From a virus, in IMG/VR virus record IMGVR_UViG_3300045988_112808: a DNA stretch of 64,000 nucleotides; one strand, written 5' to 3'. Within the stretch, counting starts at the first letter, position 1, and each line of letters begins with the position of its first letter. Made by a program: the position numbers and the translations under genes. The notes below the pieces were generated by a model that worked only from the letters and a program-made list of their open reading frames with translations, had not been told where the DNA came from and did no database searches. Below are positions 1 through 62,841 of this stretch, in pieces.

Positions 1-11
1 AACTTATCAAT

Positions 12-6113: not shown

Positions 6114-6115
6114 GT

Positions 6116-6646
6116 ATGAGAAGGAGATTTTTTAATGCTGCGGATAATTTCGTGGGAGGATGTTATAATAAGTTATCTAATGAGGATATAAAAAGGCTTG
6201 GAGGGAAAAGACCTTATGTATGTCAGTTTAATAAAATTCATGTACATATAGGACCTGTGTTAAAAGATCATGATTCTGATGTTAGTTACATAATGTTTAA
6301 TAGTTATTGGAATCAGGGTGGTTATGAATCTATGGTTTATAATCATAGCAATAATGGTATTTTTATATTAGGTGAAAACAAAATTGGTAACATAGAAGAT
6401 CATATACAAGATCTAACATATTGGTACGAATATGATCCAAGCATTAATGAAAATTATTGTTATTTTTATTATGAGGCTAATAACAGCGGAAATGCTATCA
6501 AGTTGAATGGTGAGTTTGGTGAGACCAGTACTGTTTTCAACATTCCCAGCTTGGAAGTCACCACTCTTCGTGATGGCAGTTTGAGTTTTCCGGAGATTTA
6601 TATAGAAGGAATTTGGGATCCGTCATTGTATAAGTCGGTTTTATAA
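6116..6646 (+). CDS. hypothetical protein, MRRRF-N-terminus family member 1 (ATG at 6116 preferred over GTG at 6107)
   Basis: ORF starts 2 nt after giant ORF stop; N-terminus MRRRF shared with 20542 and 21164 genes. Confidence 0.65.
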   Translation: MRRRFFNAADNFVGGCYNKLSNEDIKRLGGKRPYVCQFNKIHVHIGPVLKDHDSDVSYIMFNSYWNQGGYESMVYNHSNNGIFILGENKIGNIEDHIQDLTYWYEYDPSINENYCYFYYEANNSGNAIKLNGEFGETSTVFNIPSLEVTTLRDGSLSFPEIYIEGIWDPSLYKSVL

Positions 6647-6670
6647 TTAACTTTGCAAAAAAGTTAATTA
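6644..6670. promoter_or_regulatory. 10-bp AT-rich inverted repeat (TAATTAACTT/AAGTTAATTA) containing TAACTTTG -7-like promoter element
   Basis: perfect palindrome between 6107 and 6673 genes; TAnnTTTG at 6648-6655, 18 nt before ATG. Confidence 0.35.
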
Positions 6671-6672
6671 CA

Positions 6673-8928
6673 ATGGGTGTCAAATGTCAGATAGAAAAAA
6701 AGGAAAATGAAATAAAACGGGTTAAGGCTCCTAACGGGGAGCCTTCCGTTCTTTACGAAAGTGCCTTAAAATTATTAGGAAACAGCGAGCGGGCTCTTCA
6801 GGTATGGGCTAAGGCTTACACTCTTGGTTTTTTGTCGTATTACGGTCATTGGAATAACCCGGCTCCAGGGGAGATGTTTAACACCGATCCCAATGGCGAA
6901 CCTCTTTTAGAAGACGTGCTGTCGTATATGAAGCGTCAGGCTTATTTTTCCGATCCCTTAACGGCTCAGGATGTTAAGGATGTAAGAGATGTTATGATAT
7001 CCAATTCCATATATAGCATACGATCTCTTATTAATAGAGTTAGAGGCTCTTTTTATGTGGATGGTAATCTTATCCTAAATGAAGAAAATCTAAGGAGATC
7101 CGGCTTGTACAATGAGACAGAGATAAGTAGGATATTAGATAATCCTTCTGTACTTAATGAGGTCAGCTCTTTTATGAGGTTATTATTAGATTATTCCAAT
7201 AACGAACACGATCTCGGGAAAGAGTCTTACTTCACAACCGTAGAAAAACCATACGGTCCTGTTGTGTATAAAAATGGCGTCTTCAATAAATTAGGAAAGA
7301 GAGCATCATATAATCCGGCTGAAGTTTACGAGGTTATAAAAAATACAGTAGGAGGTATTAGTGTTGCTTCAGAGTTTGATGCTGCTTTCGAATCTTTATC
7401 TGATTCATATCCGGAGTTAGTTGAAAGATATCAGTCGGATAAGAGTTTTGCCTTGTCGCTGTTCAACGAATTTTCGAATATGAACATCGTTCCGGTTGTG
7501 GCTTTAGAAGATAATAATATCGTAGAAGGGAAGAGACGGTCATTGTCAAAGTTGCAAGATTATGCTTATTATAGCCCTATTAATGCTGAGTCATTACGGG
7601 CTCGTATATCAGCCTTTCTAAATAGGGTTAATGCTGATACAGAAGAAGACCTTAGAAGTATGATATGGGACGTAGAAGAGGCTTGTGTAGGTCTTGGTAT
7701 AGATATCGTAGGGGCGTCTAAAGCATACGACGGAACAGAAGAATCGCTGAATAAAATTGATAGCTTGATGTTGGATCTCGATATTTATGTAGCAAGGCAC
7801 AACGATGACACTTATGCTCCTACCTTAGCTTCTGCTATTGATAATGTTCTTGGAGATAGCAGGGATCGCCGTGTTATGTTTCTGCCAGAGTATATGGATA
7901 ATATGAATATCGTTTATATGGAATCTGACATAGATCCGGTATCGGCATTTGAAAATCATTCTCTGCTTTATCTTGGTGGAAACCTATATCATAAGGTAGA
8001 AAGAGATAATTTAGGTGATTTGTACGATATAGCTGCCGAGCTTGCCAAGCGGAGTCTAACTTATTTCCCACCTGGTATCTATCCTGAATATTGTTTTAAG
8101 GATGGTGTTTTAGATAAGCGCCGCGTGGAAAACGTAGATAGTAAGGTCCTTGCTGATTCTATTAAAAAATACATCCTGTCTTATACCGATTCTCAGAATA
8201 CGGAAGAGATGAATGCTACCAGATTGGCGTTCGGTCATCTTGTTATTCCTGAAAGTCCGTATGTTAATGAAGAACGGGAGTTTAGCCGATACATAAACAG
8301 AAAGCAGGACAAAGAGAATCCTTTACTCTTATTCGATTTATACCAATCTTATCTTGAAAATAAGCTTCATAATACGGAAGTGTATGAAGGGGCATACAAG
8401 TATCTTGATTTCAAACCGGATCATTTGCTGGGTCTTACCGTTTCAGATCCGGATACGTTAAAACAAATTGAACTATCTTTGGCAGGTAATGATCGTGAGC
8501 AGTTATTTGAGTATAGCATGAGCAGCACCGATCCTTCTTTTACAGATCTGTTCTATTTGGATTATTATGATATGTTATATGCCGGTTCTGATTTCTATCA
8601 CGATCTTTTTACAAAACATCCTAATCTCTTAAATGAGGTTCGGGGTCATAACATAACTAATCAGGATGATAATGTTATCGTAGAAGGTTTGTATGATAAT
8701 TTTATCAGAATAGGAAACATAGTGTTCACTAAAGTCGGCGAAAGTAGTTCCGGCTCTATCTACCAAAATCTGACAGGAACCGAATCGGAGGTGAAATACG
8801 ATTCTACTCAGAAGGCTAAGACGGTAGAAACCGATTACGCTCCATACCAAAACAGATCTGGCTTGACGCAAGATATGATCGTAAGCAAGTCTGAATTGGA
8901 TGATCTTAACAAATTAGAATGCAAATAA
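6673..8928 (+). CDS. hypothetical protein (751 aa)
   Basis: long ORF, no recognised motif. Confidence 0.75.
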   Translation: MGVKCQIEKKENEIKRVKAPNGEPSVLYESALKLLGNSERALQVWAKAYTLGFLSYYGHWNNPAPGEMFNTDPNGEPLLEDVLSYMKRQAYFSDPLTAQDVKDVRDVMISNSIYSIRSLINRVRGSFYVDGNLILNEENLRRSGLYNETEISRILDNPSVLNEVSSFMRLLLDYSNNEHDLGKESYFTTVEKPYGPVVYKNGVFNKLGKRASYNPAEVYEVIKNTVGGISVASEFDAAFESLSDSYPELVERYQSDKSFALSLFNEFSNMNIVPVVALEDNNIVEGKRRSLSKLQDYAYYSPINAESLRARISAFLNRVNADTEEDLRSMIWDVEEACVGLGIDIVGASKAYDGTEESLNKIDSLMLDLDIYVARHNDDTYAPTLASAIDNVLGDSRDRRVMFLPEYMDNMNIVYMESDIDPVSAFENHSLLYLGGNLYHKVERDNLGDLYDIAAELAKRSLTYFPPGIYPEYCFKDGVLDKRRVENVDSKVLADSIKKYILSYTDSQNTEEMNATRLAFGHLVIPESPYVNEEREFSRYINRKQDKENPLLLFDLYQSYLENKLHNTEVYEGAYKYLDFKPDHLLGLTVSDPDTLKQIELSLAGNDREQLFEYSMSSTDPSFTDLFYLDYYDMLYAGSDFYHDLFTKHPNLLNEVRGHNITNQDDNVIVEGLYDNFIRIGNIVFTKVGESSSGSIYQNLTGTESEVKYDSTQKAKTVETDYAPYQNRSGLTQDMIVSKSELDDLNKLECK

Positions 8929-9068
8929 TTTTTGTACACATATATAGTTTTTTTATAATTACAATTTGGGAAGTGGGGCTTGTGAAAGTCTCACTTTTCT
9001 TATATATGCACGTATATCAATAACATACAAGAAAAGTTAGATTTTCATTGTTTATGAATTATTTTTGT

Positions 9069-9076
9069 TAAGTTTG
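9069..9076 (+). promoter_or_regulatory. TAAGTTTG -7-like promoter element (Bacteroidota type)
   Basis: perfect TAnnTTTG in intergenic region upstream of 9151 gene. Confidence 0.3.
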
Positions 9077-9150
9077 CAATATTAGTTTCAGGAAGGGATT
9101 ATGGAAATAAGGAAAAAGTAAGAACCGAACGTAACTAATAACAGTAGGAA

Positions 9151-9348
9151 ATGAGAATCAGTACCATCAAACGTAACAACAGCATTCATCTTATGTATAA
9201 AAACATTATGAATGATTTAGGTCAATTAAGAACTGTAGTTTCAAAATCCTATATTTATAATCTGATACAAAATCAAACCGGATTAAGTATCAGAACTATA
9301 TCCCATGTCTTGAATCACACAAAAGAACAGGATACAGATTCTTTGTGA
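9151..9348 (+). CDS. small helix-turn-helix DNA-binding protein
   Basis: motif TGLSIRTISHVLN resembles LacI/Xre-type HTH recognition helix. Confidence 0.5.
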   Translation: MRISTIKRNNSIHLMYKNIMNDLGQLRTVVSKSYIYNLIQNQTGLSIRTISHVLNHTKEQDTDSL

Positions 9349-9431
9349 AAGGCATACATTTTCCTACATTTGTGTGTTCTTTAGTTTTTAGATTTAAGTT
9401 TTTCATGGTATTAGTTTAGATTAGTGTAGAT

Positions 9432-9470
9432 CAGGGCTCGCAGTGATGCGGGCCCTGGTTTGATTTAAAA
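9432..9470 (+). terminator. intrinsic terminator
   Basis: CAGGGCTCGC/GCGGGCCCTG 10-bp stem then TTTGATTT. Confidence 0.6.
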
Positions 9471-9635
9471 AGTATTAAAATATTTGCTATTTAAAATCCT
9501 GTTCCTATCTTTGCTCCAGAAACAATGAACAACGAGATCCCACCTCTGGTTGTTTGATGTTGAAAGATATTTTTGGCTCATTAGGGTTTGTCATAGTGGG
9601 ATCTGACATTCTCTTTTGGGCCTATTTTTTTTATC

Positions 9636-10202
9636 ATGGATAAAGTTTCTGTTTTTGAAAGTTCGGATTTTGGAGAGCTTAGAATTATTGTAGATCCAAA
9701 AGGAGATGTTTGGTTTGTGGCGTCAGATGTGGCTAAATCTCTTGGATATATAAATGCTAAAGATGCGGTAAAAAGACATGTAGATGATGATGATTCTATG
9801 CTTTTGCAAGTATCTGATAATCAATGGGGCGTAAAACGATCTATATTGAAAACCAGATATATAGATAGTATAAGAATAATTAATGAATCTGGTTTATATT
9901 CTCTTATATTATCTTCAAAATTAGAGTCTGCTAAGAGATTTAAGAAATGGGTAACATCTGAGGTTCTTCCTTCTATTCGTAAAACAGGAGAATATAAAAC
10001 AAGTTCCGGTGGAAAGGGAATTTTGGTCCCTGACTTTTCTAATCCGGCAGATGCAGCAAGAGCCTGGGCTGATCAATATGAAGCTGCTCAAAAAGCTATA
10101 GCCGAAAAGTCGCAGGCAGAGGCAGAAGCCGGCGTTCTGATGGGACGTACATGGGGTACGGTGGTGGTATTTACGACCATTACGGTATGCATGAGAAGAT
10201 GA
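9636..10202 (+). CDS. Bro-N domain protein (phage antirepressor-like)
   Basis: N-terminal Bro-N signature (FGELRIIVDPKGDVWFVASDVAKSLGY...HVDDDD). Confidence 0.75.
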   Translation: MDKVSVFESSDFGELRIIVDPKGDVWFVASDVAKSLGYINAKDAVKRHVDDDDSMLLQVSDNQWGVKRSILKTRYIDSIRIINESGLYSLILSSKLESAKRFKKWVTSEVLPSIRKTGEYKTSSGGKGILVPDFSNPADAARAWADQYEAAQKAIAEKSQAEAEAGVLMGRTWGTVVVFTTITVCMRR

Positions 10203-10408
10203 AGGAAATGGAAGAGCGAGAAAACGAGCTGGAAGAAAGGGAAAGAAGGCTCGAAGAGCGCGAACGTCGTCATGAAATGGAAGACCGGGAATACCGGAGG
10301 ATGGGTTACGAATCCTACCCGACCGATTACTATGGAGACGACAGATACTACGGTGACGGACCTCAGATGCGCAGAGGTCGCGGACGTGGCAGAGGTCGTT
10401 CTTATTGA
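10151..10408 (+). CDS. low-complexity Glu/Arg- and Tyr/Gly-rich protein with RGRGRGRG tail; overlaps Bro gene 3' end in -1 frame
   Basis: ORF with ER-repeat coiled-coil and RG repeats. Confidence 0.45.
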   Translation: MGYGGGIYDHYGMHEKMKEMEERENELEERERRLEERERRHEMEDREYRRMGYESYPTDYYGDDRYYGDGPQMRRGRGRGRGRSY

Positions 10409-10501
10409 GGAGCAGACGCAGAGGATCCAGCTTATCAGAAATATGTAGATACTTACGGCTACCATTTTTCTAATGCTCTCGCTGATGAGGCGGTAAAGAA
10501 G

Positions 10502-10795
10502 ATGGTCAACGTCGATGGATCCAAGAGGATCTGGAAGCAGCCGGAAATAAAAGATATTTTTGAAAAGTGCGGAGCGAAGAAGCCGGATAAAGCGACATGG
10601 GGCGATGTCCAATATGTCTTTGCAATGTACTATTCGGATGGTTTTCCGAAGGTCTTCAAATGTGAGAACGAGTTGGTGAAAGCTACGTTAATGTATTTGG
10701 ATGATCCGGATGCTCCCGAAGGAGTAGCCTTTATAAGATGGCTTGCCGTGCAAGATTACCTCGGCGAAAAAATAAACTGGAAGGATCTGACCTGA
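10502..10795 (+). CDS. hypothetical protein; same frame as 10151 ORF and open upstream to the TGA at 10406
   Basis: ORF track; 31 sense codons between TGA and ATG. Confidence 0.55.
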   Translation: MVNVDGSKRIWKQPEIKDIFEKCGAKKPDKATWGDVQYVFAMYYSDGFPKVFKCENELVKATLMYLDDPDAPEGVAFIRWLAVQDYLGEKINWKDLT

Positions 10796-10897
10796 GATCC
10801 AGACCCAGGTCCTTCCGGTGGTGCGGGAGCCATAGTAAAAAATATGATTCCCGCATTCCCGTTTTTCCCGTTTGGAAAAAAAGAATAAAAATGTTAT

Positions 10898-10940
10898 ACC
10901 GGTCGGCGGGCAATAGAATACCCGTGGCCGGTTTGTTTCA
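10898..10940 (+). terminator. possible terminator (imperfect GC hairpin + TTTGTTT)
   Basis: CCGGTCGGCGGG...CCCGTGGCCGG then TTTGTTTCAC. Confidence 0.3.
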
Positions 10941-10957
10941 CATAACTTTTTTTTGAC

Positions 10958-11134
10958 ATGAATATAGCACACGAATCTAAATCGAATAAAACCCCATTGT
11001 ATTTAATAGGAGAGTTGATTGGCGTACCGAATACGGTTATGGACTCAGCATTGCATGAACTGAAAGATAGAATAGACAAAGACCCTAAATATAAAGATGT
11101 TAAAAATTGGCTCGAATCTTTACCCAAGATCTGA
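10958..11134 (+). CDS. small hypothetical protein (58 aa, MNIAHESKSNK...)
   Basis: ATG-initiated ORF below track cutoff, followed by strong terminator. Confidence 0.4.
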   Translation: MNIAHESKSNKTPLYLIGELIGVPNTVMDSALHELKDRIDKDPKYKDVKNWLESLPKI

Positions 11135-11155
11135 ACCTATTTTTCCCAATACCAG

Positions 11156-11191
11156 GCCCGATGCGATTTTAACGTATCGGGTTTTTATTTT
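11156..11191 (+). terminator. intrinsic terminator
   Basis: CCCGAT-loop-ATCGGG hairpin followed by TTTTTATTTT. Confidence 0.7.
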
Positions 11192-11236
11192 AATTCATAT
11201 TGTTTTATTTTAAATCTAATTAATTCATAAATGTCG

Positions 11237-11244
11237 TACATTTG
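11237..11244 (+). promoter_or_regulatory. TACATTTG -7-like promoter element
   Basis: perfect TAnnTTTG 17 nt upstream of ATG 11262, downstream of terminator. Confidence 0.3.
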
Positions 11245-11261
11245 TTGAAAAAGTATTCTAT

Positions 11262-11489
11262 ATGGAAAATAAGGAAGATTACGTTGGTTACGAAGATCAA
11301 GAACTGTGTAACCGGTATTACAAAGAGGCCGAAGCCATGAGGCAAAAGCAGGACTGGTATCGGCTTAGGGCTGTCCCTGCTCCGGCCAAGGGAACGCCAT
11401 CGCCCGGCTGGGGTCAGCTTGGACGTGGAAATGAAGTTCGTGTCAAGTACGTTAGCATCAATTCAGGATTAGGAGGGGACAGATTATGA
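11262..11489 (+). CDS. hypothetical protein
   Basis: ORF track; ATGA overlap with next gene. Confidence 0.6.
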   Translation: MENKEDYVGYEDQELCNRYYKEAEAMRQKQDWYRLRAVPAPAKGTPSPGWGQLGRGNEVRVKYVSINSGLGGDRL

Positions 11490-11701
11490 CCGTAGAAGAA
11501 TTGGCTAATAAAAGATACGGTGGCGAATTTGTTTTTATGCTTGGTCATTTGGAAGGTGTAACAAGATTCGTTTTTGAATGTTTCGATCCCAGACCTGATC
11601 ACGAAGGTAAAAATACTTATATGGTTTCCTATTTTGATAAGCGCATCCGTAGAAGAGATGTAGTAGATGTGCCATGTTATATGAGTGTTTTAGCAAAATA
11701 A
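11486..11701 (+). CDS. hypothetical protein
   Basis: ORF track. Confidence 0.6.
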   Translation: MTVEELANKRYGGEFVFMLGHLEGVTRFVFECFDPRPDHEGKNTYMVSYFDKRIRRRDVVDVPCYMSVLAK

Positions 11702-11721
11702 ATTAAAATATTGTAAATATC

Positions 11722-12243
11722 ATGGTTAGAATCGCATATTTCGGAACCGATGGCTGCCCCGGTCATCACGTTATTCCAATACGAGGTAAATTCACAGAAG
11801 AGGATATTAAGGTAATAGAATCTGTAGATTGTGATGATTTCTATAAGGTGTTTGACGTTATGCGTTTTAAGATAGCTGAGTTTAAAGGATGGACGATATT
11901 GGGAATCCCGGCAAGCTTAGACGATCATAGACCTGGGAGCAAAACCGTTATCTTCATAGAGGGTAAAGCTAACGAAGCTGATTTTATGGAAGTCATACAA
12001 GAGTATTCTTTTCTTAAAAATAAGGTAAAGAAACTTATCGAATTGTATCATGATGGAGAATGGCTTGCGACTGGTAAATTGAATCAAGATCCGCCTACTA
12101 ACAAGGAGCGGTTTCAATTTATGTTAGACAAGGATGATAAACTGGTGGTGGTTCCTGGAACGTGGCATGGTAGGTTCAAGAAAGAATGGCCTACTGAAGA
12201 AGAAAAGAAGCATATTGGTAAAAACGGTATTTTAAATTATTGA
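11722..12243 (+). CDS. hypothetical protein
   Basis: ORF track. Confidence 0.65.
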   Translation: MVRIAYFGTDGCPGHHVIPIRGKFTEEDIKVIESVDCDDFYKVFDVMRFKIAEFKGWTILGIPASLDDHRPGSKTVIFIEGKANEADFMEVIQEYSFLKNKVKKLIELYHDGEWLATGKLNQDPPTNKERFQFMLDKDDKLVVVPGTWHGRFKKEWPTEEEKKHIGKNGILNY

Positions 12244-12246
12244 TTT

Positions 12247-12552
12247 ATGTGTGATAAGGAAATTGTTGTATGCGCAGCTATATGGGTTCAAGATCACAAG
12301 AACAAGCCTCACGGTCCAGTAAACATACCATCCGGAACCGTATTTTGTGGATTGAGACATTGTTCCATAATATCTCAACTTGCGGCATACGGTATAGCCC
12401 ATAAAAACCGCAGTGTTCAAGGATTTTTGACGAGCAAGAACCGGTTTTTAACAAGAGAGGAAGCATCTGAACTTGTTAAGAGCAATAATCAGGAAATGGT
12501 AGTAGATAGGAGTGCTATTAGAGAACAATTGTATTCAGAAGATCTATATTAA
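12247..12552 (+). CDS. hypothetical protein
   Basis: ORF track. Confidence 0.6.
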   Translation: MCDKEIVVCAAIWVQDHKNKPHGPVNIPSGTVFCGLRHCSIISQLAAYGIAHKNRSVQGFLTSKNRFLTREEASELVKSNNQEMVVDRSAIREQLYSEDLY

Positions 12553-12570
12553 CTAAAAAAACAAAACAAC

Positions 12571-12924
12571 ATGGGGTTTAAAATCAAAAAGTCAATCACT
12601 TATGATATGATGGACGACAGTCGGGTAGAGTATGAATTTGATAATACCAATGATTTAAATCATATCATATTTAAAGGTAATTGTAGAGAACCTTTTTCAT
12701 TTAGCAGAGTACTTGTTGAAGAATTAATTAAGACATTTGAAACCATACGGGATAGATACTTTGATAATTATGAACTTAAGGTCTATCTTTACAATTGCAT
12801 AATTCAACTGAGCGTAAATCCAAAGGATCCCAGTGAATCCTTTTTTGGCGTATATGATAGAGATGAGATGAAATTGATATACGGAATAAAGATCAGTATT
12901 CTGAAAGGAATGTTTGGCATATGA
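12571..12924 (+). CDS. hypothetical protein
   Basis: ORF track; ATGATGA overlap with next gene. Confidence 0.6.
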   Translation: MGFKIKKSITYDMMDDSRVEYEFDNTNDLNHIIFKGNCREPFSFSRVLVEELIKTFETIRDRYFDNYELKVYLYNCIIQLSVNPKDPSESFFGVYDRDEMKLIYGIKISILKGMFGI

Positions 12925-13238
12925 TGACTAAACAAGATATACAAGCAGCGGCATCGTATATTTTCCGAAGCAGTTTTGTCTCGGAGGACCAGGCAAGGAA
13001 AGCAATGGTAAGAGCCGGCAATAACGCTACCAAGATCCTCGTCAAGACCTTTAGAGGCAAGTTGTTCAAGAAAGCTTTTGAAAGAGCCCGTAGAGGAAAG
13101 GATATCAGTTCTTTTGAAAAACAGGAAAAAGAAAGTGGTTTCAATTTTCTACATAATCCTAATAATGGTCGTATGCAAAGCGGTCATATTATAATAGATG
13201 GAATTGGTCTGTTTAAACAAATAATTCATGAAAGGTAA
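12921..13238 (+). CDS. hypothetical protein
   Basis: ORF track. Confidence 0.6.
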   Translation: MMTKQDIQAAASYIFRSSFVSEDQARKAMVRAGNNATKILVKTFRGKLFKKAFERARRGKDISSFEKQEKESGFNFLHNPNNGRMQSGHIIIDGIGLFKQIIHER

Positions 13239-13398
13239 AAAAGTTGATATTCGTTTAGGCAGAGGTCTGGCGAATCAGATTAAGATAAACAAAACCATCC
13301 CAGTGTCTCATAAACCAAAAGAAGAACGTCGAATGATGTTTATTTGTGGTGATGATATTGCTTCTCTTATAAAGCGGTTTGAAAACGAATCAAAGTAA
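13228..13398 (+). CDS. small hypothetical protein (56 aa, MKGKKVDIRLGRG...)
   Basis: ATG ORF below track cutoff overlapping 3' end of previous gene by 11 nt. Confidence 0.3.
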   Translation: MKGKKVDIRLGRGLANQIKINKTIPVSHKPKEERRMMFICGDDIASLIKRFENESK

Positions 13399-13411
13399 TA
13401 TAAAGTAGGAC

Positions 13412-13771
13412 ATGTATCTTGTCCGATTTTTTTTATATATTTGTGGCATGTCAAGAGGTTATTATTGGATACCACAAACAGATGAAACGTTAAATGGCAG
13501 AAGCTATTACGTGGCTAAGATAGTAGGAGATATCACGTTTGATACTAAACGAAAAAGAATCGTATTTCAAGCTGATAGGTATTTCCCTGTAGGATCTGTT
13601 TTCCATTTTACGCACAATTGCTTCAACTATATCATAACTTGCCGACTTCGCAAGCCGGGGCTTTGGTTTGAAGCCAGGAGAGAGGATTCAGGCCCTATTT
13701 GCCCTGAAGATATTGAGCGCTTTGAATCGGGAAGGTTTATACACCGAGATGGGTACATGCATTACATATAA
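13412..13771 (+). CDS. hypothetical protein (alternative start ATG 13448 just after TATATTTG motif at 13436-13443)
   Basis: ORF track. Confidence 0.6.
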   Translation: MYLVRFFLYICGMSRGYYWIPQTDETLNGRSYYVAKIVGDITFDTKRKRIVFQADRYFPVGSVFHFTHNCFNYIITCRLRKPGLWFEARREDSGPICPEDIERFESGRFIHRDGYMHYI

Positions 13772-13823
13772 GCTGAACTTGACGATTTTTCGTAAGATTA
13801 TAATTTTTTTTCATATTATTTTT

Positions 13824-13862
13824 AAGCCATCAGACTGAGAAGTTAGGTGGCTTTATTTTTTA
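13824..13862 (+). terminator. possible intrinsic terminator
   Basis: AAGCCA...TGGCTT stem followed by TATTTTTT. Confidence 0.4.
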
Positions 13863-13882
13863 TGATATGCTTGATTTTTAAC

Positions 13883-13890
13883 TACCTTTG
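13883..13890 (+). promoter_or_regulatory. TACCTTTG -7-like promoter element for giant ORF 2
   Basis: perfect TAnnTTTG 23 nt before ATG 13914. Confidence 0.35.
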
Positions 13891-13913
13891 TCTCATAACA
13901 AAAATGTTTTACT

Positions 13914-16900
13914 ATGACATCAGCGTGTATTATTAAAAGAGATAATAAAAAGAAAGTTGTTTCTGTCTCTACCATATCAGGGGACAGGTCTATGTTATTT
14001 GATAAAATAGCATCTATTCCTCTTATGGAGAACAGGGAACGGGCCACTACTGTTTTTAAAACCGTATTTTCTAATAAGTTCTTAAAGGCTTTTGGCGACT
14101 GGAGAAAGAGAGTGCCTATCAACAAACCGGCTTATAATAAGGTAAAATCCAACATCGATCTTATTCCGGAAGCCTATAGAGAAAGGGTGTTGGATAAGGC
14201 TTCTAAGATGAGTAATCCTGTTCTTGTGTCAAAATCAGATGTACCTTATGAAATCCAAGAATCGGGCTTTGGATTCTACAGCCAAAATCTGGGTGATAAT
14301 ATTATGTTGGTGGATGCTATGGTCCCGTCAAGTATTTCCGTACCGGAAGGACCGGGAATAGACGCCGGGCAGTATCTACAAGATGCTATATCTTCGGACT
14401 TCACTCCCGTATCTATGGTACAGGATAAGGGTGTTAATTATATGGTTATAAAAGATGGTCTTAAGATATTTAGCCCAGAGGAGTTACCAGAAACAGATTC
14501 TAATCCTGTGGGTGTAACGTATCAGACCGGAGAGCCTCGTTTGTTTTTCATGAACGATCGTAGTCAATTATTTGAAGATTACGGAGAAGCTCTTCGCTCT
14601 GGCGGGAATGATATTAGAATAGGGTTCTTATCAGGCACCGTTCAAGAATCTACCGTGGATGGCGTGGAAGACATTACTTACAAAGCTGGAAAGTATGTTC
14701 TTAATAATCCCAAGTCTTTTATACCGGTCATGACCGCGTCTGCTTCTACTTCTTTATCAACAAAAGGTGGTATAATTAACTACCTTATAAAGAAAGGTCT
14801 TTTGTCCGGATCTAAGATATTCGATCCTGAAACAAGAAGCTATTATCTTACAGGAGAAGGACATACAGGACAAATTAGACTTTTCAATTCAGCCTTATCC
14901 TACACCGAGCTCCGTAATCATTTTGGTTCCGATGTTTCCATGAACGACCAAGGTATGATAACCATAAGCTCGTTGGATAATAGTAAGGTAACTATGAGGC
15001 TCGCCACCGGAGGAACGGAAAGGGTTAGCAAAGAGCAGATAAAGAACGATCTTAAGTCAGGAAGATACAATGAATTGGACGCCAAGTACGATCATTTTGA
15101 TGCGCTTGTAGTTTCATTCATATTAGAAGACAACGATCTTTATGCTGATACTAAAGCTAAGATCGTATCAGATTATAGCAGGCAGGAACGTGATCAACGA
15201 AATTCTATTGTCGAGATACTGAAAACTCTTGGCGTTAGTGTCATAGGTATGACCGACTATATAGAGAAGTACCAAACCAAATACGGGCATGAACCTTCTG
15301 CTAAGGCATTGGCGGATATTGCCAATAACGTAATAGCAGTTGGTGAAGATGCTACTTTATCTGATTTAGTAGAAGAAACAGCCCACTTCCTTGTAGAGGC
15401 ATACAGAGATCAGAATGCCGTTGAGGCTGTTCTGCAAGATGTAGAAGGTACGGAAGAGTGGAACCAGTATGCAGGTCAGTATTATAATACATACGGTAAG
15501 GTATATGAAGGAGCTGAGCTTGATAATGCTGTTAGGAGAGAAATTCTTGGAAAGATCCTCGCCATGGAGATGCAGACCGGCACAGCACAGGCGCCGGTAG
15601 AGCCCACCTCCTTCCTGGGGCGCGTCCGGCAGCTTCTCTCTGGAATCGTAAGCTGGCTTAAATCAGCTTTATCAACCCAAAGACAAGATTTGAATAACGT
15701 TATTAAAAACATTCGTGATCTTGCCATTACTGACATAGATAAAGGATTTGACACTTCTCTGTTAAAGGATAATGACTTTACATTATACTCCCTTTCTTCT
15801 ATGAACAAGAACAAGTTTCTTGAGTCTAAGATCAGATCACTAAGAAAAACATTAAGAGACTTACGTCAGATAAGCTCTGATAGGGCTGTAACTACGTCTA
15901 TGACCCTTGCTCAGCTTAAGACCATAGAAGATAAGATAAATAAGGTAGAGACCGAAATAGACAAGAATGAGATGGCGGCTGCCATGAACAGCATGATCTC
16001 CACAGCCGAAGCTCAGGTTAGATACTTAAGTAATGTGGTGAACACCATCCTTCATGGTGATACCAAAGACGGTAAGCTTCACTTCAATACCAATGATCGA
16101 AAGAACGTAGATATTATCAACAATCAGGTTCTTCCGATCATGAACGATCTTCGAGGATATATCCGTAACAGAAGTACCGAATTTGATGAACGTGAAAAGC
16201 AGGATTATACAAATAGGATCAATACCGTCATTGCCGACATCAATGGTATTCAGTCTGATATTAAATCAGTACAAGACCTTGATGAAAGTACGTTGCTTGA
16301 TAAGTTAATGAACGAACTTCATGTGCCGGCAGATAAGGTAAAGAGAGTAAAAGAATTTTTTGACAAGGTTCAACACGATGTTTCTTGGATAAGTAGGTGG
16401 TTTGGTATATTAGAGCATTCTTCCAGCCCGTTCAATAACGCTCTTGGAGCTATGATTGCCAAAGACAATTACAATGCGATGGTGAATGCCCAGCCCGCCA
16501 TATCCGACTTCCTGGCATATGCTAAAAAGCATGGTTTTAACAAATCTGAATTTGAAAAACTGCTTCAGAAAGTAGACGGCAAAACTTCCAATTACCTTCG
16601 TAGTGCTCTTGATATGGCTAAATACGATCGTAATAAGAAGCTGGCGCAGATGCGAGCGTTTGCGACTGCCATGAACATAGAGATATCAGAAGAAGAAATT
16701 GGTGATGTGGTTGACAATAACCGTAATTACGTATTTAAAAGAGAAGTAGTTGACAAGGACGGAAATACGGTTACTGAAAACGCTAAATTTAAACCATCGT
16801 CCGATAGGGTTAATACCGATATTTTTACCATCGAGCAGGAAAAGATCTATACGGAGCAGATGGAAAAGTGGGATGCTGAAAATTCAGAATTGGAATTTAG

Positions 16901-19900
16901 TGAAAGTTATGCCACAAGAATGGAATCCATATACAAAAAGGCTGAAGAAGAATTAGGACATCCGGTTTCTCAAACAACCAAAGAATACCTTAATGCCTTA
17001 TCCCGGCAAAAACGGATATTGAGGCAGCCTTTTATTGATAGCGGTGGTAATTTTGATGAGGTTGCCTACTATAAGAGTAGTAACTACGAAGAAGAAGGAC
17101 TGCTTCGTAAACAACGTAAGGAGGCAGCTTCGGAATACATATATGTAGGAACCAGGAGAGTGGAAAAAACCGGCGACCAACTTAAGATGGCCAAAGAAAT
17201 ACAAGCCATAAATGAAGTTTGGAGAAAAGAATCAAATAATGCCACTAATGCCGTATCAGAATCGTTTTTGCAAAAATTAAGAACGATTCAGAGCGAGTCT
17301 GGAGGAGAAGCTGCGCTGAAGACGCTTATGTTGGGGGGTCACCTGTCATTCAACGATCGGTTTTGGAATGACGTAGAATCGGAACAGTCGGCGCGTACCG
17401 AATCAAATAACAAGGCTTCGTATCTTAAAATGGCGCATGATATCATTAGTTCTACGACAAGTGATAGAGATGCGACTGACGTGGACTCGATTGTAAAAGA
17501 TATAGAAAAAAATAAGGCCATTATCAAGGAAATAATCGGAAACAATCGCGATGTGGCTGATATCGGAGAAATCAATGAAGCGACATTTACCTCATCTGAA
17601 AGAGATGCTTTTAGGGCCGCATCTGAAGCTATTGAAGCCGATTACGCTATTTTGATAGATTATGCTAAGATGGTGGGTCTTGAAGATATTGATAAGTACC
17701 TTACTAAAAGCAGTAAGGCTGAAAACGAAGTAAATCAGTCTTATTTAAGTGCTCTTGCTGACTCTAAGGAAATTGAATGGCAGTTTGCACAGCGTCATAC
17801 TACTGCCAAAAAAGCCAAAAGGATTCAGGCTCTTAGAGATAAGTTATTCATGGCTCAAGATAACAGGTATATGTTTACCGTCTCTGAAACCAACTACTTG
17901 TCAGAAAAATTGGGAATAGATAAAAAGCTAGATCGTAGAGATTTTAGGAATGCGGTTAGAGCTAAGATGTCTGACATATTTGGACACGATAACGGAGTAG
18001 CTGAAGTGAACGATATCGTTAATGAATTTGCCAGGAGCCAGGTCTTTTCGTACTATAAACGCATGGCGCCTACCGGATATGCGGCTATGATCGACAAAAT
18101 CGGTCGAGGTGAGATAGATGTGGCGCAGATGGTTAAGGACGTACAAAACGGTACATCCACCCAAGATTATGGCATGGACATATCGTACCTGTCTTTCGAT
18201 CCTGCAAGGGCATGGGTGGCTGAATCTGAAGCCGAAAATAGCGGCCGTAATCCTGATTATGTAAAAGATCATGGGTATGGTCATCGCATGCCTAAGAAAA
18301 GCCTGTATCGTGATGAATCATATTTCAACGACTTCGGCATTAAGTATGATGCTGATGGTAATGAGGTTGCTACTAAAAACATAGAGCAGTGGAATATGAT
18401 TCAAAAACTCAAGGAAATAAAAAGACAATCCCTTGATCTATACAAAGAGCAGAGCCCGAACCTGTATGCTATTCCACAGATATCCAAACAAGATATAGAA
18501 CGTATAGAAGGGTTAGGTATCAGCCTTAAAAGTACGGTCAGGAACTTCGTATCCGACTTATGTCTTGACCGCGTAGATGACTCCCTGTATGGTAAAACAC
18601 GTCAGGGTGAGGTATATGATCCGGAAGATAGGGTTCGGTCCATACCTAAATACTACATATATGAATTAGAGAACCAAGATGATGTATCTCACGATTTTGG
18701 CTACTCTTATTCGATGCTTATGATGCAGTCATCGTTATATAACGAAAAGCAGAAGTCTATAGAGCTTGCCCAAGGACTGGAGCAGATGTTACTGAATAAA
18801 CAATTTGAGGGTGGTAAGAAGGCTGAAGCAACCCAAGCATATCAGATGTTCAGGGACTTCTTCAACGATCATTATTATGGCATTAGGATGAACACCAAAA
18901 AACTTACGGTGAACATCGGAGGATATACGGTAGACCTTACAAGAATTATGATGGCTGTTGAAAGGTTTATGTCGGTCATGAACTTGGCACTGTCTCCGTT
19001 TGTGGCAGCTACCGGCGCCCTTACCGGCCATATCAACCTCATCATGGAATCTGCCGTAGGACAGTATATAAGCAAAGACTCCCTTAAATACGCATCGGCT
19101 GAGTTTTCACGTCTTGCGCCATCTTGTATAGCAGAAACCGGAGACATAGATAGGAAAAGCAAATTATATGTCATAGGTGAGAGAATGGGGATATTCAATA
19201 TCCGAAATCGTATGTATGGTGCCGGATACAATAGAGCGGCCAGGACCTTAATGCGTTCGCCTATGTATGCTTTTATGGAAATCCTGAACTACCCTCTTGA
19301 TCCGCAGGTTATGATTGCTACTATGGACAATGTTCGTTATTACAAAGGCCGGTTCTACACGTTCCAAGATTTCAAGATGGAAAAAGAACGTAATAAAGAA
19401 CAGAGTACCATAAAAAGAGAATGGAATGCATTAAAAGATCGTACTTTATGGAGTATGGTAGACGTCGTGGATGGGAAGGTGGTTGTAAAGCCAGGATCGG
19501 GTGTTACTGTTGAGGAAGTTGAAACCCAGATGGCTATAACCAGAAATCAAGTTCGTAGCTTGTCGCAGATATGTAACGGATCTTTGAATGAAGAAAACCG
19601 AACTGCCGCATCGCGCAACTGGATAGCCAGGTTCATGACCGCCCACCGAGGATGGTTGGTGCTGGCGGCTCAACGTCTGTGGAAAAGACGTGGCTTCAAT
19701 TTCCAGACAATGCAAGAAGAGGAAGGACTGTCAATTACGTTAAAGAATATGATAGCCAAAACATTTAGCTTAGCTTCCGAGTCTGGTATGAAAAACATCA
19801 TAGATGCCTGGAACGAAAATAAAGACAATATGAATGAGGTAGAGAAAACCAATATAAAACGTCTCAGTGTCTATGCCGGCACGTTCCTTATCATGCAAGC

Positions 19901-20327
19901 CGTATCCATGCTTCTTGCCGGATGGCGTGATGATGATGAAAACGAAGAAAGTTGGCTTACTCAATTTGGATCCTATGTCGGATTCAGAACCATAAACGAA
20001 ATAGCTTCACAGATGCCGTTTATTATGGAGCTTAACGTTGTAGATATCATTAACGACCCGTTTGTCATGGGGCGGAAGTTGAAGGATCTTACTGATCTTA
20101 GGAATTACTCACTTGATAAAGTAACATCCGGCACATACAAAGGAGAGTTTAAGTTATTTAGGCAACTCGCCAAACAGACGTTTATCAAACAATGGTATAA
20201 TATCAAGACGCCGGAAGACGTAGCGCGCGCCTATAATTGGTGGCAGCAGACAAACAACAAGTCAATGATGTTCTTCATCGGCGCTACTCCTGATTCGGAA
20301 GGAGACGATGACGTTAGTTACAAATAG
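13914..20327 (+). CDS. giant hypothetical protein (2137 aa), possibly virion-packaged/ejected protein
   Basis: uninterrupted 6.4-kb ORF ending TAG; C-terminal hydrophobic segments; no DxDGD-type RNAP motif found. Confidence 0.85.
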   Translation: MTSACIIKRDNKKKVVSVSTISGDRSMLFDKIASIPLMENRERATTVFKTVFSNKFLKAFGDWRKRVPINKPAYNKVKSNIDLIPEAYRERVLDKASKMSNPVLVSKSDVPYEIQESGFGFYSQNLGDNIMLVDAMVPSSISVPEGPGIDAGQYLQDAISSDFTPVSMVQDKGVNYMVIKDGLKIFSPEELPETDSNPVGVTYQTGEPRLFFMNDRSQLFEDYGEALRSGGNDIRIGFLSGTVQESTVDGVEDITYKAGKYVLNNPKSFIPVMTASASTSLSTKGGIINYLIKKGLLSGSKIFDPETRSYYLTGEGHTGQIRLFNSALSYTELRNHFGSDVSMNDQGMITISSLDNSKVTMRLATGGTERVSKEQIKNDLKSGRYNELDAKYDHFDALVVSFILEDNDLYADTKAKIVSDYSRQERDQRNSIVEILKTLGVSVIGMTDYIEKYQTKYGHEPSAKALADIANNVIAVGEDATLSDLVEETAHFLVEAYRDQNAVEAVLQDVEGTEEWNQYAGQYYNTYGKVYEGAELDNAVRREILGKILAMEMQTGTAQAPVEPTSFLGRVRQLLSGIVSWLKSALSTQRQDLNNVIKNIRDLAITDIDKGFDTSLLKDNDFTLYSLSSMNKNKFLESKIRSLRKTLRDLRQISSDRAVTTSMTLAQLKTIEDKINKVETEIDKNEMAAAMNSMISTAEAQVRYLSNVVNTILHGDTKDGKLHFNTNDRKNVDIINNQVLPIMNDLRGYIRNRSTEFDEREKQDYTNRINTVIADINGIQSDIKSVQDLDESTLLDKLMNELHVPADKVKRVKEFFDKVQHDVSWISRWFGILEHSSSPFNNALGAMIAKDNYNAMVNAQPAISDFLAYAKKHGFNKSEFEKLLQKVDGKTSNYLRSALDMAKYDRNKKLAQMRAFATAMNIEISEEEIGDVVDNNRNYVFKREVVDKDGNTVTENAKFKPSSDRVNTDIFTIEQEKIYTEQMEKWDAENSELEFSESYATRMESIYKKAEEELGHPVSQTTKEYLNALSRQKRILRQPFIDSGGNFDEVAYYKSSNYEEEGLLRKQRKEAASEYIYVGTRRVEKTGDQLKMAKEIQAINEVWRKESNNATNAVSESFLQKLRTIQSESGGEAALKTLMLGGHLSFNDRFWNDVESEQSARTESNNKASYLKMAHDIISSTTSDRDATDVDSIVKDIEKNKAIIKEIIGNNRDVADIGEINEATFTSSERDAFRAASEAIEADYAILIDYAKMVGLEDIDKYLTKSSKAENEVNQSYLSALADSKEIEWQFAQRHTTAKKAKRIQALRDKLFMAQDNRYMFTVSETNYLSEKLGIDKKLDRRDFRNAVRAKMSDIFGHDNGVAEVNDIVNEFARSQVFSYYKRMAPTGYAAMIDKIGRGEIDVAQMVKDVQNGTSTQDYGMDISYLSFDPARAWVAESEAENSGRNPDYVKDHGYGHRMPKKSLYRDESYFNDFGIKYDADGNEVATKNIEQWNMIQKLKEIKRQSLDLYKEQSPNLYAIPQISKQDIERIEGLGISLKSTVRNFVSDLCLDRVDDSLYGKTRQGEVYDPEDRVRSIPKYYIYELENQDDVSHDFGYSYSMLMMQSSLYNEKQKSIELAQGLEQMLLNKQFEGGKKAEATQAYQMFRDFFNDHYYGIRMNTKKLTVNIGGYTVDLTRIMMAVERFMSVMNLALSPFVAATGALTGHINLIMESAVGQYISKDSLKYASAEFSRLAPSCIAETGDIDRKSKLYVIGERMGIFNIRNRMYGAGYNRAARTLMRSPMYAFMEILNYPLDPQVMIATMDNVRYYKGRFYTFQDFKMEKERNKEQSTIKREWNALKDRTLWSMVDVVDGKVVVKPGSGVTVEEVETQMAITRNQVRSLSQICNGSLNEENRTAASRNWIARFMTAHRGWLVLAAQRLWKRRGFNFQTMQEEEGLSITLKNMIAKTFSLASESGMKNIIDAWNENKDNMNEVEKTNIKRLSVYAGTFLIMQAVSMLLAGWRDDDENEESWLTQFGSYVGFRTINEIASQMPFIMELNVVDIINDPFVMGRKLKDLTDLRNYSLDKVTSGTYKGEFKLFRQLAKQTFIKQWYNIKTPEDVARAYNWWQQTNNKSMMFFIGATPDSEGDDDVSYK

Positions 20328-20464
20328 ACGAAGAATATCGGACTTGCATTGTTTTTGTATGATTCCAATATGTTATATTAGCATCGTCAAAGAGTAGATT
20401 GTACGTTTTTTTGTTCTTACTTGAAAGATTATGTAGGTTTAATTTTTTCTGAAATTGTTTTCTT

Positions 20465-20507
20465 ACCGGTTCTCAGTCAGAGATGATAGAGAACCGGTTT
20501 CTTTTAT
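20465..20507 (+). terminator. intrinsic terminator after giant ORF 2
   Basis: ACCGGTTCTC/GAGAACCGGT 10-bp stem then TTCTTTTAT. Confidence 0.7.
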
Positions 20508-20541
20508 GTTGTCAATTATTGCTATCTTGCAAACAAAAATC

Positions 20542-21159
20542 ATGAGACGAAGATTTCAAATAGGGATGGGGGTAAATCCCTCGCTTATAATCAATAAAGG
20601 CATATACATCCAACATGTAGATGGAGGATTATATACAAAAGAAAATTGGTCTAATAAAGGATATTCCAATGATCTATGCAATGGAATAGCTCTTGTAGAT
20701 AAAGTGTGTTTTGTTATAGCCACCGAATATATTGGCACATTTCGTTGGGGTAAGGATGGAAGAGTAGATAATGTATTTGCACAAAATAGTTCTTATATGG
20801 AGACCGTTAAAAAGGATTATTGGGGGCGTGAAAATCAGAATGCGTATCTTGAATATGATACCAGTAATGAAAATTACGCTTTTAATAAAGCTAATAGCTA
20901 TTTATTTAAAAATGGTCAAAATGGATATGTAGGTGGCGCCGGAGAGTTTTTTTTGATATCATTGTATGCGAATGAAATAAACGAATGCTTTTTAATGGTA
21001 GGAGGTACGATAATGAGTAATAAAATGTGGACATCCACTCAATCTACACAATTTACCTATTCGTGGTATTATGATATAAACATCCAAGGGGATCATTTGG
21101 ATACAAGTACAAGGAGTAATCCACGTTATGTCCGCCCCTTTACTGAATTAATTTTATGA
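20542..21159 (+). CDS. hypothetical protein, MRRRF family member 2 (start moved from 20455 to ATG 20542 downstream of terminator)
   Basis: ATGAGACGAAGATTT start; terminator hairpin lies inside the longer track ORF. Confidence 0.65.
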   Translation: MRRRFQIGMGVNPSLIINKGIYIQHVDGGLYTKENWSNKGYSNDLCNGIALVDKVCFVIATEYIGTFRWGKDGRVDNVFAQNSSYMETVKKDYWGRENQNAYLEYDTSNENYAFNKANSYLFKNGQNGYVGGAGEFFLISLYANEINECFLMVGGTIMSNKMWTSTQSTQFTYSWYYDINIQGDHLDTSTRSNPRYVRPFTELIL

Positions 21160-21163
21160 AATT

Positions 21164-21901
21164 ATGAGAAGAAGATTTGAAAATAATGCTAAACTATATG
21201 AGTATAAGATAGTTAGCGATTGTATAGGGGGGGAGGTAATCGTAGAAGGAAAGAAAGTAGGCACCATTCCACAGGGCGGGCAATTTATCTTTCTGTCTAA
21301 AAAAGAACGGCTGGATTCCATAAGTGTCCAAGGCGGTGTTCCAATGGAAGATAGGCAAGAGATCGATAATAGGGTTGATACGACAGAGGAATTGCTTGAA
21401 CAGGATTCGGTGGTTCTTGCTGTTGCTTTAACAACCTCTCCTTATTATGGATTTAGAGTAAGTGTGATAGCACCTGATGAGTTTACGCTAAGAACAACCA
21501 ATAGGATTAATAGAACCTTTTTAATAACAAGCTTTACTCCACCTGCTGCTATATACGGTGTAAACTTTAGTGATCCTATTGTCCTTAATTATGATAGTTA
21601 CCAATATAAGATGCCAGATCTTGTAATTGATGGACCTCATGATAGAATAGTTAGGGCAGATCCTAATTTTACTTGGACTACAAGATGTACAGATGCCGAC
21701 TTTACACCTTTGCCATATCCAGAATCATGGTCTGGCCAAGGTTTAAATTCTATGTTCTTATCAGAAATGAAACGTCTTACTCCTGGTGATCATCATGTAT
21801 CATATACAGCTTATATTAAATTGGACTTGATAGATGATGGCGGAAGTAAAGTTCATACTGAATATCTGGTATTAGAAAAAACACTTAATTTTACGATATG
21901 A
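21164..21901 (+). CDS. hypothetical protein, MRRRF family member 3
   Basis: ORF track; ATGAGAAGAAGATTT start. Confidence 0.7.
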   Translation: MRRRFENNAKLYEYKIVSDCIGGEVIVEGKKVGTIPQGGQFIFLSKKERLDSISVQGGVPMEDRQEIDNRVDTTEELLEQDSVVLAVALTTSPYYGFRVSVIAPDEFTLRTTNRINRTFLITSFTPPAAIYGVNFSDPIVLNYDSYQYKMPDLVIDGPHDRIVRADPNFTWTTRCTDADFTPLPYPESWSGQGLNSMFLSEMKRLTPGDHHVSYTAYIKLDLIDDGGSKVHTEYLVLEKTLNFTI

Positions 21902-62031: not shown

Positions 62032-62841
62032 TTAAATACTTAACTCTTCAATGGTCAAGCCTTTTTCTTTTGCCCATTTTAACATCGAGCATAATTCTGT
62101 TTCTGATTTATATTTCGGATCACGCCACGCCCATCCGAATTTATCCAGGACATGATGATATAATTCGTCGGCCTTTGCCGTGTAAATGTCTTTGAATAAA
62201 TGCTCCGAACCTTCCGGTATAAGCATCTCTGTTGTTGCAAAATCGGAATACGATAAACATCCGTAAGCATATTCTGTTATTTCACTCCACGCTTCTCCGG
62301 CTTTAAATCCAAATTCTTTTACAAAAGCCAAAGTTAGATACATATTTAATAATATTGTTACATCATATCCCGAATCTGACTTTCTTTCTATTATTTTCTT
62401 TTCAAATTCCTTTAAATCTTCAGGTCCTAAAAAGATGTATCCTGATACCGACCGATAATTAGCCTCCGCATACTTCTTGCATTTATCATCATTAACAATC
62501 TTACCAATGTTAGATAACATCTTTTGCCTCCATTCATCACAAAACTCTACCTCTACGTTTATCCAATCGGTACCATAATTGTATTCTTTTGGATGTCCGA
62601 CCGATATTACCTTTATGTTATTCACACCATATTCATAAAGGCGTTCGCCCACCTTATTCGCCCATTCCTGTACAAAAGGAATAAACTTATTGCAATAAGA
62701 ATCAAAATCAAAATCTAATTCCTCCTCATATTCCGGCATCTCTTCATAATCTTGTTCAAAGAAATAGCGAGGATCTGCTATTGTTTCATAGAAACTTACG
62801 TTAATGAAACAAAACTCGTTGGTTGTCGTTTTTAATATCAT
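62032..62841 (-). CDS. hypothetical acidic protein (269 aa)
   Basis: ORF track. Confidence 0.65.
   Translation of the reverse strand: MILKTTTNEFCFINVSFYETIADPRYFFEQDYEEMPEYEEELDFDFDSYCNKFIPFVQEWANKVGERLYEYGVNNIKVISVGHPKEYNYGTDWINVEVEFCDEWRQKMLSNIGKIVNDDKCKKYAEANYRSVSGYIFLGPEDLKEFEKKIIERKSDSGYDVTILLNMYLTLAFVKEFGFKAGEAWSEITEYAYGCLSYSDFATTEMLIPEGSEHLFKDIYTAKADELYHHVLDKFGWAWRDPKYKSETELCSMLKWAKEKGLTIEELSI

Follow-up and report, generated by a model that had tools for sequence, protein, structure and literature searches.

The DNA analysed here, referred to as the window, is a stretch of 64,000 nucleotides (nt) from the IMG/VR virus record IMGVR_UViG_3300045988_112808, in which three genes begin with the same five amino acids (aa), MRRRF, and continue into unrelated proteins. 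Judged from sequence, there is about an even chance that this N-terminal tag, MRRR[F/Y] across relatives, is a minimal peptide that docks interchangeable accessory modules, fibres or decorations, on the virion. The window was approximately 92% identical to phage crAssE-Sib (OR575929, 151 kb) and is assigned to the Epsilon crAss-like phages of the gut. crAssE-Sib itself belongs to the Epsilon crAss-like phages, and its annotation includes genes for the portal, capsid, ring and muzzle as well as a diversity-generating retroelement (DGR) (PMC11054128). An earlier note on this DNA had placed MRRRF starts at 6116, 20542 and 21164, and all three were present, each opening an open reading frame (ORF). 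The tags and their genes are as follows.

6116..6130, + strand: tag 1, ATGAGAAGGAGATTT, encoding MRRRF; similarity to crAssE-Sib ends at 6128
6116..6646, + strand: gene 1, 176 aa, starting MRRRFFNAAD; cassette family MRRRFFNAAD, slot A
20542..20556, + strand: tag 2, ATGAGACGAAGATTT, encoding MRRRF; the gene start in the crAssE-Sib annotation is identical
20542..21159, + strand: gene 2, 205 aa, starting MRRRFQIGMG; a 17-residue tag and linker, then an Lcl_C/DUF1566-like domain (about residues 18-205)
21164..21178, + strand: tag 3, ATGAGAAGAAGATTT, encoding MRRRF; similarity to crAssE-Sib ends at 21185
21164..21901, + strand: gene 3, 245 aa, starting MRRRFENNAK; cassette family MRRRFENNAK, slot B2

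The degenerate pattern ATGAGRMGNMGNTTY was found at exactly three sites in the 64 kb, both strands included, compared to a mean of 0.07 in the shuffled window, and none of 100 shuffles reached three. The tag was absent from the remaining approximately 100 ORF starts in the window. Genes 1-3 had no match in Pfam or PHROG, and profile-profile comparison aligned them to one another over the first residues only. In the whole genome of crAssE-Sib, exactly five ORFs carried an N-terminal RRR[F/Y], all in the late/structural strand block and two of them at the hot spot termed locus C below; a search of the same genome with the looser pattern M-x0-4-[RK]RR-hydrophobic returned no further ORF, in any frame, with an ATG start and a length of 50 aa or more. 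Across about 270 related contigs, 343 ORFs with an N-terminal x0-1-RRR-[F/Y/L] were found at three hot spots, with up to approximately ten tagged genes per genome, and were grouped into at least 11 BLAST families. All-against-all hhalign comparison showed that the best alignment between families nearly always covered residues 1-7 to 1-14 alone, and the families are therefore not ordinary paralogues. Two exceptions were seen: the MRRRY family and the gene 3 family have residues 1-41 in common (E 4e-6; BLASTP 7e-5), and residues 11-48 of the gene 1 family were weakly similar to an Lcl_C-like tagged family over about 36 residues (hhalign E 2.7e-5). Overall, the proposal of a short conserved N-terminal tag on unrelated proteins, probably serving assembly or targeting, was supported.

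The tag was written by 24 codon strings among these ORFs (Arg as AGA, AGG, CGA or CGT; Phe as TTT or TTC; Tyr as TAT or TAC; Leu as TTA). An Arg of the tag was replaced in only five of the 343 ORFs, always by Lys, and one allele used a GTG start followed by SRRRY. For codons 1-20 of gene 3 the ratio of nonsynonymous to synonymous substitution rates (dN/dS) was 0.08. The synonymous turnover of the Arg codons and the GTG-start allele indicate that selection acts on the peptide and not on the nucleotides, so that the tag peptide is evidently under purifying selection while its DNA is not. This speaks strongly against a regulatory or recombination signal in the nucleotides as the cause of the conservation. 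The claim that the start is conserved at the nucleotide level was correct for the three window copies, which are alike, but did not extend to the relatives, where the codons and once the start codon vary and the peptide is kept.

These results also bear on a translation-level or regulatory role, in which purine-rich first codons or the nascent MRRRF would tune initiation or early elongation, or in which a DNA or RNA motif would be bound by a phage factor. The likeness of the window copies at the nucleotide level fits such a role, and so does the position of genes 1 and 3, which start 2-4 nt past the preceding stop codon. Initiation in Bacteroidota is poor in Shine-Dalgarno sequences and sensitive to the composition of the start region, which would also suit it. 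However, the amino acids stayed fixed through the 24 codon strings, including CGT-rich ones and the GTG start. The upstream regions of the tagged genes had no common motif and no shared promoter or ribosome-binding site, with a sigma-70 scan at background level; gene 2 lies behind a terminator in a different context, and the untagged genes of the window include neighbours in the same operon. The shared initiation or regulatory element that the earlier note had offered as an alternative is thus highly improbable.

Boundaries of similarity between the window and crAssE-Sib were taken from BLASTN. Similarity was continuous over positions 1-6128 and lost to 6639, and was continuous again over 12140-21185 and lost to 21896. 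In gene 1 identity stopped after 13 nt and in gene 3 after 22 nt, and it returned 5-7 nt before their stop codons. Since identity breaks just past the tags and resumes at the stops, the bodies have been swapped with the tag retained. At the position of gene 1, crAssE-Sib encodes an unrelated 192-aa protein starting MRRRYEDVSS, and at the position of gene 3 a 149-aa protein starting MRRRFENIKT, while gene 2 was kept between the two phages at 90% amino-acid identity. The features that flank these exchanges are as follows.

12..6113, + strand: giant ORF 1, a virion protein of structural or cargo type, truncated by the window edge (2208 aa in crAssE-Sib)
6673..8928, + strand: conserved 751-aa gene with no assigned function, the 3' flank of slot A in all relatives
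13914..20327, + strand: giant ORF 2, 2137 aa, the conserved 5' flank of slot B; homologue of crAss001 gp49
20465..20507, + strand: terminator-like hairpin between giant ORF 2 and gene 2, with a 10-bp G+C-rich stem, then UUUCUUUUAU

Slots A and B were surveyed in 160 related IMG/VR contigs and locus C in 80 relatives. Slot A, which follows giant ORF 1, contained the FFNAAD cassette, the YEDVS cassette, or both in either order, and its conserved 5' junction consisted of the last approximately 33 nt of giant ORF 1 together with the tag. In tandem arrays the second copy carried a duplicate of these approximately 33 nt from the 3' end of giant ORF 1 and of the tag. Slot B was occupied either by gene 2 with one of several alleles behind it or by a lone cassette fused at the tag. 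Alleles of the same slot had the upstream junction and the tag in common and diverged thereafter, and deletions as well as tandem insertions terminated at tags. The third hot spot, locus C, belonged to the tail module, with the ring and BACON tail-protein genes on one side and the muzzle gene on the other, and contained tandem arrays of up to six tagged genes away from any giant ORF. The association of the tag with giant ORFs, which had been part of the original observation, is therefore incidental.

Some relatives also carried a 410-aa TnpB (OrfB_IS605 and Cas12f1-like TNB) inserted beside slots A and B, at 7864-9096 in L009 and with equivalents in L030, L037, L066 and L122. In addition, the database protein P0426 is a Gly_rich_2-TnpB fusion. 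Taken together, these inserts and the fusion show that IS605-type elements land in the cassette hot spots.

That deletions and tandem insertions end at tags would agree with the tag being a passive relic of recombining gene starts. Alternatively, it could be a recognition or processing motif for a phage enzyme, for which the candidate is a small HExxH 'zincin' protein with two predicted transmembrane helices. The zincin-like gene (L163 27289-27750, corresponding to 62289-62750 of the crAssE-Sib record; L165 7549-8004) shares 8 nt with the first tagged gene in crAssE-Sib, and a distant crAss-like contig had the same gene order. However, an obligate partnership was rejected, as the zincin homologues in cr110_1 and in Bacteroides phage EMB2 are not followed by tagged genes, and no peptidase lies next to slots A and B. 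A passive relic, for its part, would not give synonymous turnover that preserves Arg, a dN/dS of 0.08, or recurrence in Mu-like and other phages. Peptidase recognition or a relic is accordingly quite improbable and, like the regulatory explanation, less likely than the readings weighed below.

The bodies behind the tag, where they can be recognised, look like adhesin-type or decoration-type modules. The protein of gene 3 comprises a flexible tag (residues 1-6), a small N-terminal beta-domain common to the MRRRY family (about residues 1-40) and then a beta-sandwich resembling immunoglobulin or fibronectin type III (Ig/FN3) domains; its predicted model was all-beta and Ig/FN3-like, with residues 1-6 disordered. 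Codons 61-245 of gene 3 (window 21344-21898) gave a dN/dS of approximately 3.8 among 13 alleles (dN 0.041, dS 0.011), and the hypervariable residues were 172, 174 and 219. The body of gene 3 is evidently under diversifying selection. Targeting by a DGR as the source of this hypervariability was rejected, as the template repeat of crAssE-Sib had no match in the window.

The domain of gene 2 was widespread, with 660 HMMER matches, and elsewhere it was the C-terminal domain of proteins of 600-2400 aa. It forms the C-terminal tip of a 783-aa protein in the crAss-like phage cr116_1, whose gene is located just downstream of the portal gene, at the position where crAss001 has fibre genes. It also occurred as a stand-alone protein of approximately 220 aa with varied conserved N-termini, namely MKYLRKFATEAE...PNVSL, MSSFRRRLM, or MRRRF/MRRRY. 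In most stand-alone homologues (P0187-P0308) the N-terminus was a different, strongly conserved module of about 35 residues (MKYLRKFATEAE...PNVSLV...Y), which seems to serve this lectin-like domain as an alternative adaptor. The consensus of the domain, GY(L/V)P/GxxGE...W(S/T)STQ...VRPF, resembles the Lcl_C/DUF1566 family; the window protein had no match to Lcl_C (PF07603), and four of 32 homologues matched it below threshold (best E 4e-4). The possibility that the domain is fused to homologues of the giant ORFs in other genomes, as a Rosetta-stone link, was discarded because its carriers of 2342-2437 aa are not homologous to giant ORF 2. In 20 of the 23 relatives in which gene 2 was disrupted, the disruption was an indel of +/-1 at a homopolymer tract, G5 or T8 (gene nt about 26-31 and 399-406); these indels could be slipped-strand on/off switching or assembly error.

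Among the other tagged proteins, one family at locus C was identified as Gly_rich_2 (PF21722; E 4.7e-18, 66.4 bits against a cutoff of 24.3) and is not represented in the window. A further tagged family contained DUF5977 (x3) together with BACON (x2), and another had a weak Lcl_C match. A lipoprotein signal in gene 1, at Cys16, was rejected, as the preceding segment is polar.

The main rival to docking is a capsid or cargo targeting signal, comparable to the T4 capsid targeting sequence (CTS) or to the leaders of Photorhabdus virulence cassettes (PVC), which are extracellular contractile injection systems (eCIS). The basic N-terminus would send proteins into the head or the tail-barrel cargo zone, possibly by binding DNA, cargo or the portal protein, and they would then be ejected as variable anti-defence or takeover factors. 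Slots A and B do lie directly behind giant genes of cargo type. Giant ORF 2 is distantly homologous to gp49 of crAss001, a cargo protein associated with RNA polymerase (BLASTP E 1.9e-19, 22-25% identity), and by this match the window part 13914-20327 is a virion-RNA-polymerase/cargo block; the C-terminal 399 codons of giant ORF 2 gave a dN/dS of 0.0085. The behaviour of the loci, with unrelated bodies behind a kept leader, mirrors the hyperplastic internal-protein loci of T-even phages, and the strong diversifying selection and frequent loss would also suit anti-defence genes. Crassviruses hold a store of approximately 5.5 MDa of cargo proteins (PMC10172136), which is in line with this explanation, and N-terminal loading signals are known for PVC payloads (PMC11495950). 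On the other hand, the recognisable bodies are of extracellular type (Lcl_C-like, BACON, DUF5977, Gly_rich_2 and Ig-like), the largest array, at locus C, is in the tail module, tagged homologues in other phages come after fibre genes, and there is no common protease site after the tag. Cargo targeting is therefore considered unlikely. The analogy to the T4 CTS drawn in the earlier note was apt for the behaviour of the genome, with its hyperplastic loci and kept leader, but not for the domain content, which points to the outside of the virion.

The docking explanation is supported by the unrelated binding-type bodies behind one kept tag and by the clean swap boundaries. According to this explanation, an exposed cationic-aromatic N-terminus would insert, after synthesis, into a putative common acceptor on a conserved tail or capsid structural protein. 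The inserted part would be the tag with a linker of about 10-20 residues or, in some families, a small beta-domain of about 40-60 residues. The particle would thereby display any body behind the tag, and such a body may bind host-surface or mucosal glycans. The phage population could shuffle, duplicate, delete or switch off modules with the assembly interface untouched, and the short shared sequence would double as a homology patch where deletions and tandem insertions occur.

Several observations weigh against docking. The five conserved residues are far shorter than known docking peptides (26-29 residues), and slots A and B are inside the cargo/virion-RNA-polymerase gene block and not the fibre block. 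Of the 80 relatives, 30 had an intact gene 2, 23 had a disrupted and five a partial copy, and 22 lacked the gene; with 50 of 80 relatives lacking an intact copy, the modules are dispensable and may have a role other than adsorption. The bodies of gene 1 and of several tagged families had no annotation, and the AlphaFold2 model of gene 1 was unusable with a predicted local distance difference test (pLDDT) score of 34. Finally, an Arg triplet could equally bind nucleic acid.

Tagged homologues were also present in more distant phages, so that the motif is found in related as well as distant genomes while similarity of the kind expected for wider paralogy was not seen. Protein P0183, on another crAss-like contig, was 39% identical to gene 2 and starts MRRRFQNN; a CrAss_Ring_1 gene and a small zincin-like gene are located upstream of it and a DUF5977-like gene starting MCRRF downstream. 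A search for related loci with P0183 among viral contigs found nothing. Protein P0207 starts MRRRY. For full-length Gly_rich_2 homologues (45-96% identity), [RK]RR was present within the first six residues in 88 of 105, with N-termini that include MRRRF, MLRRRT, MSRRRF and MKRRA. One of these homologues is encoded 2 nt after a 1054-aa collagen-repeat fibre gene, and another is located in a Mu-like element beside proteins starting MNRRK and MNIRRF. The MNIRRF protein has its N-terminal 60 residues in common with the MRRRY family (E 6e-15) and the remainder not. These homologues suggest a wider rule, namely that small proteins whose genes lie beside fibre genes in Bacteroidota phages carry three Arg and then a hydrophobic residue at the N-terminus.

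A broader and more tentative possibility is that x0-3-Arg-Arg-Arg-hydrophobic is a general plug-in address by which Bacteroidota phages of several morphotypes mount arbitrary glycan-binding modules. The morphotypes concerned might be crAss-like podoviruses, Mu-like elements and phages with collagen-like fibres. It is likewise possible, though doubtful at present, that the acceptor is conserved throughout and that the repertoire is shuffled, duplicated and switched on and off by homopolymer frameshifts at dedicated hot spots. If such an address exists, it would constitute a natural phage-display system of four to five residues.

The start of gene 2 at 20542, as proposed in the earlier note, agreed with the crAssE-Sib annotation and leaves the hairpin with its U-run outside the coding region. 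The hairpin had a minimum free energy of -25.5 kcal/mol (z = -3.5), with the hairpin proper at 20465-20498 followed by the U-run. A simple terminator scan overlooked it because its central part evidently exceeds the 3-8-nt loop limit of the scan. An upstream extension of gene 2 (TTG at 20455 or ATG at 20506), which was hinted at by tblastn, was rejected, as BLASTP homology starts only at residue 18 of the MRRRF protein; the extension would also traverse the terminator hairpin.

The block of small genes at window positions 9000-13900, between the 751-aa gene and giant ORF 2, was also mosaic relative to crAssE-Sib. Similarity was 82% over 6639-10126, crAssE-Sib carries approximately 2.6 kb of additional DNA after position 10126, and a further gap in similarity was located at 11712-12140. 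The counterpart of this block in crAssE-Sib includes antirepressor, 'spike protein' and DUF2829 genes among others.

crAss-like phages are the most abundant viruses of the human gut, and most of them are unculturable. The five-residue tag marks all members of a rapidly evolving accessory repertoire and so offers a simple sequence mark by which metagenomes can be searched for candidate genes of host or mucus interaction, most of which lack annotation in databases. Diversification is also visible at the hot spots while structural genes stay at 99% identity, with exact cassette boundaries, tandem duplications, one body with a dN/dS of approximately 3.8 and recurrent homopolymer frameshifts. If the tag is a docking peptide, it would reveal a conserved assembly interface and a minimal connector for display or host-range engineering in Bacteroides phages, one much shorter than the 26-29 residues used by Klebsiella phages and crAss001.

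A conserved N-terminal address on mosaic phage proteins is already a known kind of feature, while the tag itself, its shortness, its multiplicity and the dedicated crAss-like hot spots appear undescribed. The term MRRRF was not found in phage papers, and the description of crAssE-Sib mentions neither the tag nor the hot spots (PMC11054128). Among known N-terminal signals, the RR-x-F core of the tag resembles that of twin-arginine translocation (Tat) signal peptides. However, genes 1-3 have no hydrophobic h-region or A-x-A site and carry polar or charged residues right after the tag; with neither h-region nor A-x-A site, the tag is not an export signal. The T4 CTS, of approximately 10 residues, is removed at the L/I-x-E protease site in which it ends, and the internal proteins that bear it are injected. 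The internal-protein loci of T-even phages are hyperplastic, with unrelated, rapidly exchanged small proteins behind a common N-terminal leader. The likeness consists in a common leader on unrelated proteins, hypervariable loci and cassette boundaries at the tag. The difference is that no consistent cleavage motif was present here and that the bodies are adhesin-like: within the first 25 residues, L/I-x-E occurred only in gene 3 (L11-Y12-E13), and genes 1 and 2 and the other families had no common site. In PVC, a tag at the N-terminus is enough for diverse effectors to be loaded into a phage-tail-like particle (PMC11495950). The leaders described there are about 50 residues long, however, and require an AAA ATPase (Pvc15), and no such ATPase was found beside the tagged genes.

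In crAss001, which belongs to the same viral order, the tail fibre gp22 is held through residues 1-26 by a THA/THB docking hub (PMC10172136), and the likeness lies in a fibre attached by a short N-terminal segment. gp22 differs in starting with MFFTQEDYRK and in being a single conserved 832-aa fibre and not a family of small cassettes. No RRR tag was present in the virion proteins of crAss001, and genes 1-3 had no match to its gp22-gp26 by BLASTP or phmmer. In the Klebsiella podophages KP32 (gp38) and KP34 (gp57), as here, a short N-terminal peptide precedes unrelated swappable bodies and the gene is located just downstream of a larger structural gene. For receptor-binding protein 2 (RBP2) of KP32, the first 29 residues are needed for virion incorporation and are transferable to foreign domains (PMC13352976). 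The KP32 gp38 peptide of 29 residues has Leu2, Asp3, Phe5 and Asn6, whereas the tag is M-R-R-R-F/Y with only four to five residues shared. Peptides of the KP32 type dock on a T4gp10-like branching domain of RBP1, and no such domain was seen when the neighbouring giant ORFs and the 751-aa gene were scanned against Pfam and PHROG. The two systems also differ in number and in necessity, as the genomes studied here carry up to about ten tagged genes, which are dispensable.

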